From a virus (taxonomy: Duplodnaviria; Heunggongvirae; Uroviricota; Caudoviricetes), in the IMG/VR virus record IMGVR_UViG_649989948_000014, positions 1-29,649 of that record: a stretch of DNA of 29,649 nt; one strand, 5' to 3'. Within the stretch, counting starts at the first letter, position 1. The number at the start of each line of letters is the position of its first letter. This document shows, piece after piece, positions 1 to 22,982 of the stretch. The notes beneath the pieces were generated by a model. That model was given only the letters and a program-made list of their open reading frames with translations. It was not told the origin of the DNA and searched no databases. A program made the translations under genes and the position numbers.

Positions 1-462
<462 letters not shown>

Positions 463-503: not shown

Positions 504-1536
504 TTACGCCAGTTGTACGGACACGAACGCATCAGGGTCAGCCAGCAGCATCAGCGGTGCTGACTGAATCATGGTGAACTCACGCGCCGGATCGCCGGTG
601 GTCACCCAGTTTTTCGGGTAGCGGGCAGAGGCGTTAATACCTTCGCGCTGTGCGTCCGCATCCTGAATGCAGCCATAGGTGCGCAGACCGCGTGCCTGAG
701 TGTTCCCCAGCACCATCGTGTTGTCCGGCAGGAAGTTCTTTTTGACGTCGTTTTCCACGTACTGTCCGGAATACACGACGATCGCCGTATCGCCATACAT
801 CCCCTTATAGGACACCGCTTCGCCCAGGTCTTTTACCGCTGTCTCCAGCTCGGAATTAGAGCCGCGACGGGTATCCAGCTTCTCCTTGACGGCTTTGAAG
901 GAACGGAACAGCGCCCAGCCTTTCGGATCAAACACGATGATATTCACCACGCCGCTGGCGTTCAGCGCGTAGGCTTCGATATCGTCGGTCGGGTCATACG
1001 TGGACTTGTCACGCTTGCTCCACTCCGTGCCGCCGGACTGCGTGATGTTGTTCGCCGCACTGCGGCCCATATCCACCTCAACCGGATCGAAGGCTTCACC
1101 GGTCATGGTGTATTTGCCCTTGAGCACGGCAGAAACTGCCTGCATCTCTTCGACCTGAGCAATGGCCAGCTCTTCGTCACGCATGTTCTGCAGGATGATG
1201 CGACGGCGGCGGTAAGCCGGAAGCCGGGTCCGCCAGATTCTGCGGATCTTCATCCGGCAGGCGACGCAGGGTCATCTGCGGATTCACCTCATGCTTCGGC
1301 TTGACATAACCCGGCGTAAATTCAGAGGTGGAGCCGCCACGGGAACGGATAACCTCACCGGAAACAATTGGCGAAACGTACAGCGCCATGTTTACCAGTC
1401 CAGGAATTTGTGAGAGATAGACTTTCTCCGTGGTGAAGGGATAGCTCTCACGGAAAAAGAGACGCAGAAACAGCGGATCAAACTTAAATTTCTGCTCATT
1501 TGCCGCCAGCAGCTGGGCGGTTGTGTACATCGACAT
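504..1536 (-). pseudogene. E: lambda major capsid protein E, frameshifted
   Basis: Track ORFs 1177..1563 (MSMYTTAQLLAANEQKF...QNLADPA) and 504..1253 (...YRRRRIILQNMRDEELAIAQ...VSVQLA) together cover lambda E but in different frames; the junction shows CCGGCTT twice in tandem on the minus strand (plus ~1214-1227). Confidence 0.85.
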
Positions 1537-1591
1537 AAAAAAATCCCGTAAAAAAAGCCGCACAGGCGGCCTTTAGTGATGAAGGGTCAGG

Positions 1592-1933: not shown

Positions 1934-3233
1934 TTACACTGGTGTGTTCAGCAAATCGTTAACGGCATCAGATGCCGGGTTACCTGCAGCCAGCGGTGCC
2001 GGTGCCCCCTGCATCAGACGATCCAGCGCAGTGTCACTGCGCGCCTGTGCACTCTGTGGTGCTGCGGCCAGAATACGGCGGGCCGTTTCCACGGTCATAC
2101 CGGGGGTTTCGGCCAGCACGCATGCCTGTTCTTCGCGTCCGTGAGCCTCCTCACAGTTGAGGATCCCCATAATGCGACTGTTTTCTGCCGCAACCGCTGC
2201 GGTGATCTGCGCGTTCACGTCCGGCTGCGCAGCGCTGGCGTTCTCGCCCTCCGTCGCTTGCACCACGCCAGTAACGTCAGCCTGCGAAGCAGTGGCTGAA
2301 ACAGTTGTTGATTGAGTCTCTTTGGTCATTCGCCCTCCTGAGAGACGGGATTTACGTGCATCCAGTGCATCACGCATGACGGTGATCGCATCGGTACTGT
2401 TCACAAGTTCATCAGCCAGTCCGGCATCAATGGCCTCCTGACCGCTGTACACTGCAGCCTCGGTATCCAGCACAGCCTGCACGGACAGGCCGGTATATGC
2501 CGACACCTTCTGTGCAAACATCCGGCGGGTTGCATCCATCCGGGACTGCAGTGTTTCCCGGACATCATCCGGTAGATGGCTGTAGGGGTTGCCATCCACC
2601 TTATGGCTGCCGCTGTAAATCAGCGTGATTTCCACGCCCTGTTTCTCCAGCGCAGCACCGTAATTACTGTGAGCCATCATGACGCCGATGGAGCCTGTCC
2701 GGGCGGTCTGCGTGACCAGACGCCGGGAGGCGGCGCTGGCAAGCAGCTGACCTGCACTGCAGTTCATGTCGTTGGCCAGCGCCCATACCGGTTTTATGTC
2801 TCGCACACGGGCGATGATGTCAGCACAGTCAAATGCTCCCGCCACCATCCCGCCCGGTGTGTCCATATCCAGCAGAATGCCGTCCACAATCGGATCGCTG
2901 GCAGCCTGTTGCAGACGGGCGATAATGCCGTTGTAACCGGTCATCCCCGAATACGGCTGCAGCGCCCGCGTCCGGCTGACCAGCGTGCCGGACACCGGCA
3001 GCACGGCGATGCCGTTCATGACCTGATAACTGCGGGCCTGTCGTGGTCCGTCATCATCAACGGATAACGCCAGCGCCGCGGGTGCCTCTCCGGCAGTCAG
3101 GCTGTCGCCGGACACCGCATCCGCCAGGCGGCTGATCCCAAGCTGGCCTGCAAGCGCACAAAAGAAAACCCGCGCATAGGCGGGTTCAAGCATCAGCGGC
3201 TCATTAAAGGCCATACTGGCAATATGCGGGAGA

Positions 3234-3253
<20 letters not shown>
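1934..3253 (-). CDS. C: capsid assembly protease C (minor capsid protein C; scaffold Nu3 nested in frame in its 3' part)
   Basis: ORF 1934..3388 contains TAELRNLPHIASMAFNEPLMLEPAYARVFF...NDLLNTPV matching lambda gpC; likely GTG start at 3253 overlapping the end of B. Confidence 0.92.
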
Positions 3254-6934
<3,681 letters not shown>

Positions 6935-6960
<26 letters not shown>

Positions 6961-7480
6961 TCAGCAACCCCGGTATCAGTTCATCCAGCGCGGCTGCTTT
7001 GTTCATGGCTTTGATAATATCCCGTTTCAGGAAATCAACATGTCGGTTTTCCAGTTCCGGAAAACGCCGCTGCACCGACAGGGGGAGCCCGTCGAGAATA
7101 CTGGCAATTTCACCTGCGATCCGCGACAACACGAAAGTACAGAATGCGGTTTCCACCACTTCAGCGGAGTCTCTGGCATTCTTCAGTTCCTGTGCGTCGG
7201 CCTGCGCACGCGTAAGTCGATGGCGTTCGTACTCAATAGTTCCTGGCTGGAGATCTGCCTCGCTGGCCTGCCGCAGTTCTTCAACCTCCCGGCGCAGCTT
7301 TTCGTTCTCAATTTCAGCATCCCTTTCGGCATACCATTTTATGACGGCGGCAGAGTCATAAAGCACCTCATTACCCTTGCCACCGCCTCGCAGAACGGGC
7401 ATTCCCTGTTCCTGCCAGTTCTGAATGGTACGGATACTCGCACCGAAAATGTCAGCCAGCTGCTTTTTGTTGACTTCCAT
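6935..7480 (-). CDS. Nu1: terminase small subunit Nu1
   Basis: 181-aa ORF MEVNKKQLADIFGASIRTIQNWQEQGMPVLRGGGKGNEVLYDSAAVIKWYAER... matches lambda Nu1. Confidence 0.96.
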
Positions 7481-11547: not shown

Positions 11548-12630
11548 ATGAAAAAATTAACAGTGGCAATTTCTGCTGTAGCTGCATCAGTACTGATGGC
11601 GATGTCTGCTCAGGCAGCTGAAATTTATAATAAAGACAGTAACAAGCTGGATCTGTACGGGAAAGTTAATGCTAAGCACTACTTCTCCTCTAATGATGCA
11701 GATGATGGTGATACTACTTATGCCCGTCTTGGCTTCAAAGGTGAAACCCAAATCAACGATCAACTGACTGGTTTCGGTCAGTGGGAATATGAATTCAAAG
11801 GCAACCGCGCTGAATCTCAAGGTTCCTCCAAAGATAAAACCCGTCTTGCCTTCGCTGGCCTGAAATTCGGTGACTACGGCTCCATCGATTATGGCCGTAA
11901 CTACGGTGTAGCATACGATATTGGTGCATGGACCGACGTTCTGCCAGAATTCGGTGGCGATACCTGGACCCAAACAGATGTATTCATGACTGGTCGCACC
12001 ACAGGTGTTGCAACTTATCGTAACAATGACTTCTTTGGTCTGGTTGATGGTCTGAACTTTGCTGCTCAGTATCAGGGTAAAAATGACCGCACTGACGTAA
12101 CTGAAGCTAATGGTGATGGTTTCGGTTTCTCCACTACTTATGAGTATGAAGGATTCGGTGTAGGTGCAACCTATGCTAAATCTGACCGCACTAATAATCA
12201 GGTTATCTACGGTAACAACAGCCTGAATGCATCTGGTCAAAATGCTGAAGTATGGGCAGCTGGTCTGAAATATGATGCGAACAACATCTATCTGGCTACC
12301 ACCTATTCTGAAACCCAGAACATGACTGTTTTTGGTAATAACCATATTGCCAACAAAGCACAAAACTTCGAAGTAGTTGCACAATATCAGTTCGACTTCG
12401 GTCTGCGTCCGTCCGTTGCTTACCTGCAATCTAAAGGAAAAGACTTGGGTGCGTGGGGTGATCAGGACCTGGTTGAATATATTGATGTAGGTGCAACCTA
12501 TTACTTCAACAAAAATATGTCCACTTTTGTTGATTACAAAATCAACCTGATTGATAAGAGCGATTTCACGAAAGCATCTGGCGTTGCTACCGATGATATC
12601 GTTGCTGTAGGTATGGTTTACCAGTTCTAA
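11548..12630 (+). CDS. nmpC: outer membrane porin, NmpC/OmpD-type, apparently intact
   Basis: ORF 11488..12630; from the internal Met: [46 protein letters not shown]...GMVYQF (signal peptide, C-terminal aromatic residue); opposite strand to Q and the lysis genes, as nmpC is in DLP12. Confidence 0.9.
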
Positions 12631-13424: not shown

Positions 13425-13787
13425 TCATTCATCTCCCAGTTCAGTGATGGTCAGTTCCAGCTTTCCACCTTTGACAACCGGCATCTTCACAACGCGGTAA
13501 TCAACGACCTGAGCATCATCCAGCCAGAAACCTGCTTTAGTGAGTGCGTCAAAAGCGGCTTTTTGCAGATTATCCAGGTCACGGCGACGGCGATCCGGCA
13601 TGTGGCACTCAATGCGGATTTTCACAGGCATAGCCAGGCCGATATCCAGCATTGCGTTTTTAATGATTCGGGCGACGTTATCGCGGTATGCCTGCCCCTC
13701 TGCGCTGACGTGCGTGCGCCCGCGATTATGGCGGTAATAGCGATTATTGCTCGGAGGCCAGGGTAATGTGATGCTGTAGGTATTCAC
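13425..13787 (-). CDS. rusA: Holliday junction resolvase RusA
   Basis: 120-aa [77 protein letters not shown]... matches RusA. Confidence 0.93.
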
Positions 13788-18058: not shown

Positions 18059-18391
18059 TTAATGTGGTGTGCTTCGTGACAATAAATTAATAACCAACAC
18101 ACCGGCACAAATCAACATCATGCCTATAATGGCTGGCAGGTCCAACCGTTGGCCGAAAAATCCCCATGATAGTAAGCTAATCAGGACAATACCGACTCCT
18201 GACCAGATAGCATAAGCAATCCCTGTAGGAATATAAGCCAGCGTCTGAGCTAATAACCAGAATGATGCACAATAACAAATAATTGTACCAACAGATGGCC
18301 ATAACCGTGTAAAACCTTCTGAAAACTTCATTAAGGTTGTACCAATGACCTCTGCAAGTATTGCACCACCAAGATAAATATAAGGATTCAT
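18059..18391 (-). CDS. emrE: small multidrug resistance efflux transporter EmrE
   Basis: ORF 18059..18445; from the internal Met MNPYIYLGGAILAEVIGTTLMKFSEGFTRLWPSVGTIICYCASFWLLAQTLAYIPTGIAYAIWSGVGIVLISLLSWGFFGQRLDLPAIIGMMLICAGVLVINLLSRSTPH (110 aa, four TM) matches EmrE. Confidence 0.92.
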   Translation of the reverse strand: MNPYIYLGGAILAEVIGTTLMKFSEGFTRLWPSVGTIICYCASFWLLAQTLAYIPTGIAYAIWSGVGIVLISLLSWGFFGQRLDLPAIIGMMLICAGVLVINLLSRSTPH

Positions 18392-18761: not shown

Positions 18762-19459
18762 ACCCTTGCTCCTTTCAGCCCAAACTTAGCTTTGATTTCT
18801 GCGATCTTCGCCAGAGCCTGTGCACGATTTAGAGGTCTACCGCCCATGACAGGAAGTTGTTTTACTGGTTCAGGTATAGCCTCACCACGGTTAATTCGTG
18901 CGGTCATACAGGACAGTTCATCGGCAGCCTTGCGCCGTAATTCCGCGTCAGTCAACGCATTGGCCCGCATGTTCTGATACAGGTTGGTAACCAGCCAGTA
19001 GTGCGCGTTTGATTTCCACGGATAAGACTCTGCATCCGGATACAGCCCGCGCTTCCGGCAATACTCGTAAACCATATCAACCAGCTCGCTGGCGTTTGGC
19101 AGCCCGGCGGTAACGGATGCTTCTTCCCGGCACCAGGCGACAAACTGCCCGGGTGATGGCAGGAATGGTCGATTCTGCCGACGGGCTACGCGCATTCCAG
19201 CGTTAACCTGTTCCATTGTGGTGATCCCGTTTTCCCAGAAAGCCAGAACCCACTGGCGGCGGATTTCGTTCAGTTCATTCTGGTCACGGTTAGCCAGGCT
19301 CGCCGGGAAAGTTGCCAGTAACTGGCTGAACACACCGTTGATGATCTGCGCTACCTGCTGTACCTGCGGCTTTTCGTCGTACTGTTCCGGCATGTTGTTG
19401 GCGATCCGGCGCATCTGCTCACGGTCAAAGTTAACCATCTGTGCGGCGATGTTTTTCAT
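18758..19459 (-). CDS. P: replication protein P (DnaB helicase loader)
   Basis: 233-aa ORF MKNIAAQMVNFDREQMRRIANNMPEQYDEKPQVQQVAQIINGVFSQLLATFPASLANRDQNE... near-identical to lambda P. Confidence 0.96.
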   Translation of the reverse strand: MKNIAAQMVNFDREQMRRIANNMPEQYDEKPQVQQVAQIINGVFSQLLATFPASLANRDQNELNEIRRQWVLAFWENGITTMEQVNAGMRVARRQNRPFLPSPGQFVAWCREEASVTAGLPNASELVDMVYEYCRKRGLYPDAESYPWKSNAHYWLVTNLYQNMRANALTDAELRRKAADELSCMTARINRGEAIPEPVKQLPVMGGRPLNRAQALAKIAEIKAKFGLKGARV

Positions 19460-20475
19460 AAATCCACCCCGTAAATCCAGTCAGTGTTTGTCAGGTCGAG
19501 TTTTGATTTTCCGGTTGTCACGCCAGCCTGTTGCTTGTTACGGTTGATTTCGAGTTGGGTCCACTTGTCGCGGAGTTTGGCCGGACTCAGCACGTTACCG
19601 GACCAGAAGTTGTCCTGGCATGCCCAGCGGAACAGCACGCACATGTCGCGGTGGTTACGTCCGTCACGTTCACGCATCAGGCGGATATCGTTAGCCCACC
19701 CTGCAAAATTCGGTTTTCTGGCTGAGGGCGCGATGGTCTTCACCATGTTAAACATCCACTCTGCGGCGGTCAGGTCTTCTGCTGTCCCCCACTTGCTGCC
19801 GCTCTGAATTGCAGCATCCAGTTTCTCCAAAGGAAAGTCGTTTTCTGGCTGGTCAGAGGATTCGCCAGAATTCTCGGACGAAAAAGGTTTTATATTGTCT
19901 TTTGTTAGTTTGTCTTTTGTGTTTACCTGATTCGGGTAAACGCCTTTACCTGATTTGGGTAAACTTTTCTTACCTGATTCAGGTAAATTTACCTCTTTCA
20001 GGTAAACTTTATTTTTCTTACCTGATTCGGGTAATGTTGACCATTCACTGACCACATTATTAATGCCGATATTCCGCCCACTCTGAATAAAAATCCCACG
20101 CTTTACCAGAACACTTTTTGCAGCAGAACACTTGTGCGGCAATATCCCGGTCAACTCGGAAAGTTGCTCGTTGCTCACCCAATCCAGTTTTTTATTAAAG
20201 CCATATGTTTTGCGCATGACAGCCAGGAAGACCAGAAGCTGGTGCTGTGTTAATCCGGCCAGCATCACAGCTTCCAGCAACTCATTTGCAATGCGCGTAT
20301 AACCATCATCGAGATCTGCCACGCGCGGCTCCTTTTGTGCCGCATCCGGCACTGGAAAATTGAATATCTCAGCAGTGTTTGCCATAATTCCTCCCGCAAT
20401 GAGTGTGTTACGATTTGCACCTGAAAGTCGGTTCTGTTCCAGCAGACCGGCTTTCGCCATTTCTGAACCTGTCAT
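19456..20475 (-). CDS. O: replication initiator O (start may be the internal Met near 20385)
   Basis: ORF contains MANTAEIFNFPVPDAAQKEPRVADLDDGYTRIANELLEAVMLAGLTQHQLLVFLAVMRKTYGFNK..., lambda O-like N-terminal domain and C-terminal P-interaction region; iterons inside the gene. Confidence 0.9.
   Translation of the reverse strand: MTGSEMAKAGLLEQNRLSGANRNTLIAGGIMANTAEIFNFPVPDAAQKEPRVADLDDGYTRIANELLEAVMLAGLTQHQLLVFLAVMRKTYGFNKKLDWVSNEQLSELTGILPHKCSAAKSVLVKRGIFIQSGRNIGINNVVSEWSTLPESGKKNKVYLKEVNLPESGKKSLPKSGKGVYPNQVNTKDKLTKDNIKPFSSENSGESSDQPENDFPLEKLDAAIQSGSKWGTAEDLTAAEWMFNMVKTIAPSARKPNFAGWANDIRLMRERDGRNHRDMCVLFRWACQDNFWSGNVLSPAKLRDKWTQLEINRNKQQAGVTTGKSKLDLTNTDWIYGVDL
19924..20034. repeat. replication origin iterons (four ~18-bp direct repeats) with adjacent AT-rich region (about 19880-19921)
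   Basis: Plus strand shows tacctgattcgggtaaa / tacctgatttgggtaaa / tacctgattcaggtaaa / tacctgattcgggtaa at ~23-bp spacing, each an internal palindrome, inside O, followed by aaaaggttttatattgtcttttgttagtttgtcttttgtg. Confidence 0.85.
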
Positions 20476-21011: not shown

Positions 21012-21056
21012 AATTGACTCCTTTAGTTTGAATTGACTGTTAAGTTGATTGCTTAT

Positions 21057-21415: not shown

Positions 21416-22105
21416 ATGAAAACAACACTCTCAGAAAGACTTAAAGAAGCCAGATTAGCGCGAGGCCTTACACAAAAGGCGCTTGGGGATTTGGTCGGGG
21501 TTAGCCAGGCTGCTATTCAGAAAATCGAAACAGGGAAAGCTAATCAAACAACTAAAATCGTGGAGATCGCGAACGCTTTGGGTGTGCGCGCAGAATGGTT
21601 ATCTTCTGGCGTTGGAAATATGTCAGACAGTACAGTGCAACCAATACAATCAACTGTCAGCCATTCCAAATACTTCAAGATTGACGTTCTTGATATAGAA
21701 GTCAGTGCTGGGCCGGGAGTCATCAACCGTGAGTTTGTAGAAGTTCTACGCTCGGTTGAGTACTCGTTTGACGATGCTCGTCACATGTTCGATGGTAGGA
21801 AGGCGGAAAATATCCGCATCATTAACGTGCGTGGTGACAGCATGTCAGGAACGATCGAACCAGGTGATCTGCTGTTCGTTGATATCACAGTTAAATCTTT
21901 CGACGGTGATGGTATCTATGCGTTTCTGTACGACGACACAGCCCATGTAAAGCGCCTGCAAATGATGAAGAATAAGCTGCTGGTCATCTCTGATAACAAA
22001 AGCTACTCACCGTGGGACCCGATCGAGAAAGACGAGATGAACCGGGTGTTCATCTTCGGTAAGGTTATTGGGAGCATGCCGCAGACATATAGGAAGCATG
22101 GGTAG
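21416..22105 (+). CDS. cI: CI repressor (HTH plus LexA-like S24 autopeptidase domain), non-lambda immunity specificity
   Basis: ORF 21350..22105; from the internal Met MKTTLSERLKEARLARGLTQKALGDLVGVSQAAIQKIETGK... (HTH), Ala-Gly cleavage site in VSAGPG, Ser in GDSMSGT and Lys in HVKRL. Confidence 0.85.
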   Translation: MKTTLSERLKEARLARGLTQKALGDLVGVSQAAIQKIETGKANQTTKIVEIANALGVRAEWLSSGVGNMSDSTVQPIQSTVSHSKYFKIDVLDIEVSAGPGVINREFVEVLRSVEYSFDDARHMFDGRKAENIRIINVRGDSMSGTIEPGDLLFVDITVKSFDGDGIYAFLYDDTAHVKRLQMMKNKLLVISDNKSYSPWDPIEKDEMNRVFIFGKVIGSMPQTYRKHG

Positions 22106-22226
22106 TACCAATTAAAAATTATCAACTGGGCATTGTGCTCATTCAGTAAAGAACTAATTCCTATCTTTGCTCTAGGTAGTAATATTAAGCCACCGCAATA
22201 ATATCTTTACCTAACGGCGTAAGAAT

Positions 22227-22254
22227 CCCGGTCACCGTGCCGGGTTTTCTTTTG
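22227..22254 (+). terminator. intrinsic terminator downstream of cI
   Basis: CCCGG tcaccgtg CCGGG followed by TTTTCTTTTG, ~120 bp after the cI stop, where lambda carries rexA-rexB. Confidence 0.55.
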
Positions 22255-22379
22255 CCCTCCCCTCATCACACACACCGTTAAAAAACCACCATAACCTCGC
22301 TTCAGTTATCGCTATGCGATTCAAGTCACAAAATAAATCCATCCTAAATACAACCAGTTATATCTAAAACAACCAATAA

Positions 22380-22422
22380 AACAACTTTTGTTGTTGACGA
22401 TAAAACAACTATAGTTTTAAAT
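22380..22422 (+). promoter_or_regulatory. candidate pL with overlapping oL operator palindrome
   Basis: TTGACG (about 22394-22399), 17-bp spacer, TTAAAT (about 22417-22422); overlapped by the palindrome AACAAC tttt GTTGTT and followed by further ACAAC motifs; directed into the kil-gam-bet-exo-xis-int operon. Confidence 0.45.
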
Positions 22423-22699
22423 AAGTTCATCGCAACAACACAACGATACGGCAACTACCTGATTCACCGTTGCGATGACCGCTTAGATCCGCAGTTTGAA
22501 TTTCAGCAGGCTTCGGGGAGTGCGAGGGGTGAAACGGACGCGTGAACGTCGGTGTGACCAGCTGAAATTAACTCAACATTTCATACCTTAGTCGCTTCAA
22601 CGAGGCGGCTTAGTTATGACAACCGGCGGCCATCCACCGCCTGAATACGCGCAGAAGTCTTTATATGTTCAGCAGCCCAGCTTACGGGCAGGAGTTTTT

Positions 22700-22906
22700 A
22701 TGGTTCATCAACATTACGGAACGCAGACCGTTAATCGAGGTGCGGTCATGCCAGGAATGCTGGTCAAACACAAAGATGGTACCTGGACTGCATCAGCTAA
22801 TTTACGCGGACGGCTTTATCTGCATCGCGGCATCGAGCGCACTTATACCCGTGATTTGCTCGTGGAAGTTTTTCTCGACGGACGCGGTAACGGCCTGAAT
22901 CACTAA
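22700..22906 (+). CDS. Kil-like small protein (possible host division inhibitor, KilR-like)
   Basis: 68-aa ORF with strong RBS (gcaggagtttttATG): MVHQHYGTQTVNRGAVMPGMLVKHKDGTWTASANLRGRLYLHRGIERTYTRDLLVEVFLDGRGNGLNH, immediately upstream of gam as kil is in lambda; family from memory only. Confidence 0.4.
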   Translation: MVHQHYGTQTVNRGAVMPGMLVKHKDGTWTASANLRGRLYLHRGIERTYTRDLLVEVFLDGRGNGLNH

Positions 22907-22982
22907 CCCCCCTTTCCTGTTTTCCTAATCAGCCTGGCATTTCGCGGTCGATATTTTCACAGCCATTTTCAGGAGTTCAGCC

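Follow-up and report, generated by a model that had tools for sequence, protein, structure and literature searches.

The major capsid gene E of a cryptic lambda-like Escherichia coli prophage carries a 7-bp tandem duplication

Gene E and its 7-bp duplication

The window, that is, the whole stretch of 29,649 nucleotides that was analysed here (IMG/VR record IMGVR_UViG_649989948_000014, Caudoviricetes), opens with the end of an IS3-family element, followed by the head genes of a lambda-like prophage in the order Nu1-A-W-B-C-D-E-FI', the same as in phage lambda, with the major capsid gene E lying between D and FI (Table 1). Read on the minus strand from 1536 to 504, gene E begins with ATGTCGATGTACACA (ATG at 1536; MSMYTT...) and finishes with GCGTAA. 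A first-pass annotation had placed a split gene E at 504-1563; the split gene stands, but its start is refined to this ATG, which gives a span of 504-1536. The assignment to the lambda-type gene is borne out by 97.3% DNA identity to lambda J02459 over the whole gene, where the feature is labelled 'E (capsid component;341)', and by the protein obtained after repair of the frame, which aligns along residues 1-341 with the lambda capsid chains of PDB 7vi9 (E=1.1e-224). Moreover, the Pfam family PF03864 (Phage_cap_E) is matched by both fragments of the gene (119 and 226 aa). Functional members of the family carry an unbroken frame of about 341 codons, whereas the frame of the window gene breaks after codon 105 and meets a stop as codon 120. 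Judged by its sequence, the gene is therefore classed as a pseudogene of the lambda gpE-type capsid family (PF03864, HK97 fold) and not as a functional member of it. The pseudogene as such is already known, being annotated in RefSeq, where PGAP labels E as 'frameshifted' in both NZ_CP146655.1 and NZ_AP045036.1.

Table 1. Coordinates of the prophage head region and of the lesions within it, on the numbering of the window.
Feature	Position	Strand	Remarks
IS3-family element, end	1..189 (L001 21375-22632)	minus	~1258 bp, cut by the window edge
Truncated FI	190..462	minus	first 273 nt only; runs into the IS end; fusion ORF ends at 160
Major capsid gene E (lambda gpE type), pseudogene	504..1536	minus	1033 nt, against 1026 in the intact gene
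3' fragment ORF of E, 226 aa	504..1184	minus	ATG at 1184, original E frame, open back to 1253; predicted only
5' fragment ORF of E, 119 aa	1177..1536	minus	gpE residues 1-105 plus 14 out-of-frame residues SGLPPPSHHPAEHA; TGA at 1177-1179
Tandem duplication CCGGCTT CCGGCTT	1214..1227	minus	plus strand AAGCCGGAAGCCGG; single copy in all intact alleles
D	1592-1924	minus	apparently intact; same RefSeq protein accession as the 2018-10-2CC sister
C/Nu3	1934-3253	minus	apparently intact; same RefSeq protein accession as the 2018-10-2CC sister
B	3234-4835	minus	apparently intact; same RefSeq protein accession as the 2018-10-2CC sister
W	4832-5038	minus	apparently intact; RefSeq accessions shared with the 2018-10-2CC sister module
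A	5035-6960	minus	apparently intact; same RefSeq protein accession as the 2018-10-2CC sister
Nu1	6935-7480	minus	apparently intact; same RefSeq protein accession as the 2018-10-2CC sister

The list of open reading frames gives two overlapping frames for E, 1177..1563 (128 aa, from an upstream GTG) and 504..1253 (249 aa), which share about 77 nt and correspond to the two halves described in the first-pass annotation. At their junction, the letters of the minus strand are GCG GAC CCGGCTT CCGGCTT ACC GCC, with CCGGCTTCCGGCTT at 1227-1214 and surroundings CTGGCGGAC CCGGCTT CCGGCTT ACCGCCGCCG, so that the tandem claimed earlier is read directly. The period-7 identity covers exactly 14 bases, with a C before the first unit and an A after the second, which makes the boundaries of the duplication unambiguous and leaves no flanking microhomology. 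The first-pass annotation had given lambda E one copy only, and the alignment to it that had been proposed as a check now confirms the insertion: when the window gene is aligned with lambda J02459 and with the intact allele of the prophage in E. coli 2018-10-2CC, it differs from the intact allele by 7 inserted bases only, and removal of one CCGGCTT restores a protein of 341 aa, identical to the 2018-10-2CC allele (WP_000063238.1) and differing from lambda gpE at 7 of its 341 residues. This comparison with homologues is what shows the insertion, since the repeat alone proves nothing: the window holds two perfect 2x7 tandems, against about 1.6 expected from shuffled sequences.

The other one, GTTGCTC twice at 20163-20176, lies in an O-type replication gene (19456-20475, minus strand) and is also present in the sister prophage of 2018-10-2CC and in strain TK3889; the O-type gene is intact. 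This second tandem is native to the O-type gene and illustrates that 7-bp tandems of this kind arise by chance.

As claimed before, the duplication shifts the frame, so that the product stops at 119 aa after the out-of-frame tail SGLPPPSHHPAEHA. At window 1177-1184 (ATGCGTGA), the early stop codon (TGA) and an ATG in the original E frame overlap; reinitiation at this ATG could yield the C-terminal fragment of 226 aa, an ORF that is called separately by gene callers. The HK97 fold begins with the N-arm and E-loop and continues with the spine helix of the P domain and then the A domain (PMC5701804). By this order, the 119-aa product should consist mainly of the N-arm and E-loop, lacking the A domain altogether and the greater part of the P domain, and would consequently be unable to build a shell.

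The prophage and its IS3-associated deletion

The prophage occupies the lambda attachment site (ybhC/bio side) in an E. coli lineage for which strain MS 145-7 stands as representative. One flank (window ~27.1-29.6 kb) contains integrase, excisionase and ybhC; at the opposite end, before the first position of the window, come a diguanylate cyclase, ybhB and the bio genes. The genes int, xis, O/P, Q and S/R/Rz are intact, so that excision, replication and lysis may be possible, and a repressor gene and an almost complete head module are retained as well. Downstream of E, an IS3-family element, with ends TGTAGTGGCACAC... and ...CCACTACA, stands in place of the FI C-terminus, FII, Z, U, V, G, T, H, M, L, K, I, J and the lom N-terminus. 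The junction, at which GGTGACGCTGCAT abuts TGTAGTGGCACAC, recurs in every related contig extending that far. PGAP describes FI as 'incomplete; missing C-terminus' and the Ail/Lom gene as 'missing N-terminus', so that three PGAP pseudogenes stand in a row (E, FI and lom), with the IS3-family transposase between FI and lom. The flanks of the element thus come from two different genes, which makes the event an IS-mediated deletion, or a recombination between two IS copies, instead of a simple insertion.

An intact relative is the sister prophage of 2018-10-2CC (NZ_AP027899.1, handle L007), which lies at the same site. Its Nu1, A, W, B, C and D proteins are identical to those of the window, as is the DNA of its E gene save for the 7 bases, the same E allele being carried by the prophages of O104:H4/55989. 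It differs from the window in having a single CCGGCTT, a full FI, a complete FII-to-J tail module and lom, and its immunity/replication region is partly different (97% identity or unaligned). In the alignment to this sister, the break-points fall at positions 21024 and 9225 of L007, which corresponds to about 11.8 kb missing from the window prophage.

The absence of FII, the head-tail joining gene, and of every tail gene means that no infective particles can be formed, whatever the state of E. The first-pass annotation had regarded the lesion in E as the block to capsid formation; E is indeed broken, but the importance of this lesion was overstated, given that even a repaired gene would give no infectivity. 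MS 145-7 holds a single E homologue at this similarity level and thus no second copy that could complement it. Restoration of the E frame could at best provide heads, never infective particles, and the suggested assay of induced lysates for infectivity would be negative either way. In this sense the duplication matters little, as one more morphogenetic gene decaying in an already tail-less prophage. On the practical side, prophage-prediction tools that scored this ~34-kb element as 'intact' by its gene content would be wrong, and the 14-base tandem together with the FI'/IS3 junction offers a handy lineage marker for isolates and metagenomes (junction GGTGACGCTGCATTGTAGTGGCACAC; duplicated site GACCCGGCTTCCGGCTTACC).

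Disruption of the lambdoid head region by IS elements is recurrent, independent insertions being seen in other lambdoid prophages that share this head module. In strain MS 119-7 (L005, 5260-7972), an IS66-family element splits the decoration gene D. In strain A1 (L006, NZ_CP029328.1, 4841-6497), the same IS3-family transposase (WP_085968792.1) lies at a different position of FI. A1 (H74) was considered as a case of the present junction combined with an intact E, but it is rather an independent, simple IS3 insertion elsewhere in FI, with the tail genes kept, and as such it is silent on the order of events discussed below.

In the early region, a gap of 595 bp (22106-22700) without any annotated gene separates the S24-peptidase repressor (21416-22105) from kil (22701-22907). 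An N-type antiterminator gene is not evident within this gap, whose plus-strand ORFs all measure 31 aa or less. Between repressor and kil, the sister prophage differs and carries a hypothetical gene of 127 aa.

Occurrence among genomes and assemblies

A search with the 1060-base stretch of the locus matched 86 phage records, and the 30 of these 86 that were listed all span 1053 bases. Among 5426 complete E. coli genomes, 3154 carry a near-full-length E homologue, and only two match at 100% over all 1060 bases, namely MS 145-7, from a human colon in the USA, and TK3889, from a calf in Japan. The next-best E. coli matches show 99.3% identity over 1053 bases, i.e. they are identical save for the 7-base gap. 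A 71-base probe centred on the repeat retrieved the same two strains again, which were the only ones with at least 99% identity among 2430 matching genomes. Between MS 145-7 and TK3889, two SNPs were found over the 41 kb compared. In a large collection of public assemblies, 76 blocks contain the exact 119-aa protein, including the older draft of MS 145-7 (GCA_000179115.1), other NCBI drafts, ENA metagenome assemblies and Logan run assemblies, and the 14-base tandem was present in the fetched contigs, except for one with a single copy (L016, see below).

These data bear on the possibility that the duplication is an artefact of sequencing or assembly and that the true genome has one CCGGCTT and an intact E, a concern already raised in the first-pass annotation. 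A 7-bp indel in a lone assembly would be suspect in principle, and small indel noise does occur in these data, as seen in the A-run at 22281-22286. Nevertheless, the same 14-base tandem has been obtained for two complete genomes from different laboratories, hosts and countries, it recurs in the earlier MS 145-7 draft, in NCBI drafts and in ENA and Logan assemblies, and CCGGCTT is neither a homopolymer nor any other error-prone context. Assembly error is excluded for practical purposes, and the probability that we would still grant it is vanishingly small. In this gene, a disrupted copy is set against intact orthologues, the disruption is reproduced in independent data, and a further inactivating lesion accompanies it; a real, heritable 7-bp duplication in E of a cryptic lambda-like prophage, as part of ordinary prophage decay, is accordingly the reading that we hold with high confidence.

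The window itself is identical to NZ_CP146655.1 over 1-21563, and the remainder is one base off in an A-run. This run, at 22281-22286, has 6 residues in the window and 7 in NZ_CP146655.1, the sole difference across the window, so that the window stems either from a near-identical assembly or reflects an uncertainty in homopolymer length.

Origin of the lesions and comparison with known systems

With regard to its origin, the 7-bp tandem in E would have arisen by replication slippage or by a template-switch error. Classical slippage normally relies on flanking microhomology, and direct reading of the sequence revealed none at the CCGGCTT repeat. The term 'slipped-strand' used in the first-pass annotation is a reasonable label, but the mechanism that it names is inferred, with neither microhomology nor a significant hairpin at the site. 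A hairpin-promoted duplication was rejected after DNA folding: the GGCGG...CCGCC inverted repeat at the wild-type site reaches only -8.1 kcal/mol (z = -1.6), and the duplicated form (z = -0.6) likewise lends no support. A 7-bp target duplication left behind by an excised transposon was considered and rejected, given that excision of a bacterial IS does not normally leave both target copies without any bases of the element.

As for the order of the two lesions, the IS3-associated deletion of the tail genes would have come first, which would have removed the selection on the head genes, and the duplication in E would then have been fixed neutrally in the course of ordinary prophage decay. This sequence of events, deletion before duplication and neutral fixation afterwards, is the one towards which we lean, with some reserve. 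A fusion ORF of FI' and the IS, specific to this junction, occurs in 57 blocks of the collection. Of 24 junction contigs read, six representative places were displayed; E is split or duplicated in five of these six. The exception, L016 (ENA ERZ27263790 k141_52046; 2934-3959), combines this IS junction with one CCGGCTT copy and an unbroken E of 341 aa, whose protein is the same as that of the repaired window gene. In sequence terms, this one metagenome contig weakly suggests that the junction predates the duplication. In the E gene of L016, 10 synonymous SNPs also lie no more than ~300 bp from the site of the duplication, and two other SNP clusters are present, so that the contig may equally reflect a patch acquired from another lambdoid prophage by recombination, or chimeric assembly by MEGAHIT. 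A history in which the duplication arose first in a complete prophage and the tail was deleted later, or in which the E gene of L016 is chimeric or was repaired by recombination, seems to us rather unlikely, though it deserves to be weighed. Both lesions co-occur in all contigs examined but one, and their co-occurrence does not settle which is older; the SNP cluster of L016 resembles an imported patch; and contig L013 is similarly patchy, with 20 SNPs within 260 bp of the lysozyme gene. Between temperate phages and defective prophages, moreover, relaxed recombination has been documented (PMC3945230). Against the duplication having come first, no contig or genome was found that combines it with an intact FI/tail region, while the junction has the wider distribution and is present on both states of E. 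Among the complete E. coli genomes, none was found with the junction and no duplication, or the reverse.

The clustered SNP patches of L016, L013 and L011 indicate recombination with other lambdoid prophages. Several contigs of this prophage share SNPs in the portal gene B. The L013 contig breaks off inside E, ~250 bp beyond the duplication, a sign that this sample may contain a second copy of E.

Some readings would give the split gene a function. Recoding is known from the lambda tail assembly genes G/GT, where a programmed -1 frameshift takes place at a slippery heptamer conserved in all relatives, and the E locus resembles them in having two overlapping ORFs within a lambda morphogenetic gene. 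The geometry of the TGA-ATG overlap (ATGCGTGA) can permit translational coupling, and the ~77 nt shared by the two frames could be seen in the same light. Even so, it is extremely improbable that E remains functional through programmed recoding, or through termination-reinitiation giving a useful C-terminal fragment of gpE. Unlike G/GT, the split in E has no slippery site, is found in one lineage and would need a +1 instead of a -1 shift; within the overlap of the frames, neither a slippery heptanucleotide nor a prfB-like CUU UGA context was found, and the longest homopolymer is 3 nt. The split is seen in none of the 30 listed phage E genes (86 records matched) and in two of the ~3150 E. coli genomes with E, and hence is not a conserved feature. 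In addition, no N-terminally truncated or two-piece HK97-fold protein is known to assemble. The 7-bp repeat could also be imagined as a reversible on/off switch of capsid production by phase variation, given that exact tandem duplications can revert through loss of one copy and that L016, a junction-bearing contig, has a single copy. This we consider very improbable: the unit occurs in one or two copies and never as an array, all displayed junction contigs other than L016 have two, the single copy of L016 sits on a different E haplotype and is no simple revertant, and the loss of FII and the tail genes leaves such a switch without a useful target. The chance appears minute, too, that the 119-aa and/or 226-aa fragment acts as a dominant-negative capsid subunit, in which case the lineage-wide retention of the split, beside head genes that are otherwise intact, would not be neutral; if true, gpE fragments would poison the head assembly of superinfecting lambdoid phages and constitute a prophage-encoded defence.

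As prophage decay goes, the present element is at a textbook stage. The cryptic lambdoid prophages of E. coli K-12, DLP12, Rac and Qin, decay by IS-associated deletion and point pseudogenisation, and the present prophage is like them in being a chromosome-fixed lambdoid element with an IS-bounded morphogenetic deletion and a frameshifted structural gene. It differs from them in retaining more modules, which corresponds to an earlier stage of decay. A different parallel is offered by the laboratory E amber mutants of lambda, which make no proheads and have likewise lost the single major capsid protein. The likeness is to mutants whose other head genes are intact, whereas the present prophage is also without FII and the tail genes; besides, its lesion is a natural 7-bp duplication and not a nonsense codon, and cannot be relieved by tRNA suppressors.

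With DLP12 the relationship extends to gene content, since emrE, ybcK, ybcN, ninE, ybcO, rusA, ylcG, quuD, essD, rrrD and nohD, all of DLP12 type, are found here. The present prophage resembles a relative of the DLP12 ancestor in which decay has gone less far; it lies at lambda attB, unlike DLP12, which lies at argU. The DLP12-like nin/Q/lysis region covers window ~7.5-18.4 kb, with emrE at 18059-18391 and rusA at ~13425-13787. The same region includes a gene for an OmpC/NmpC-type porin (11548-12630), and its ybcK is a recombinase gene.
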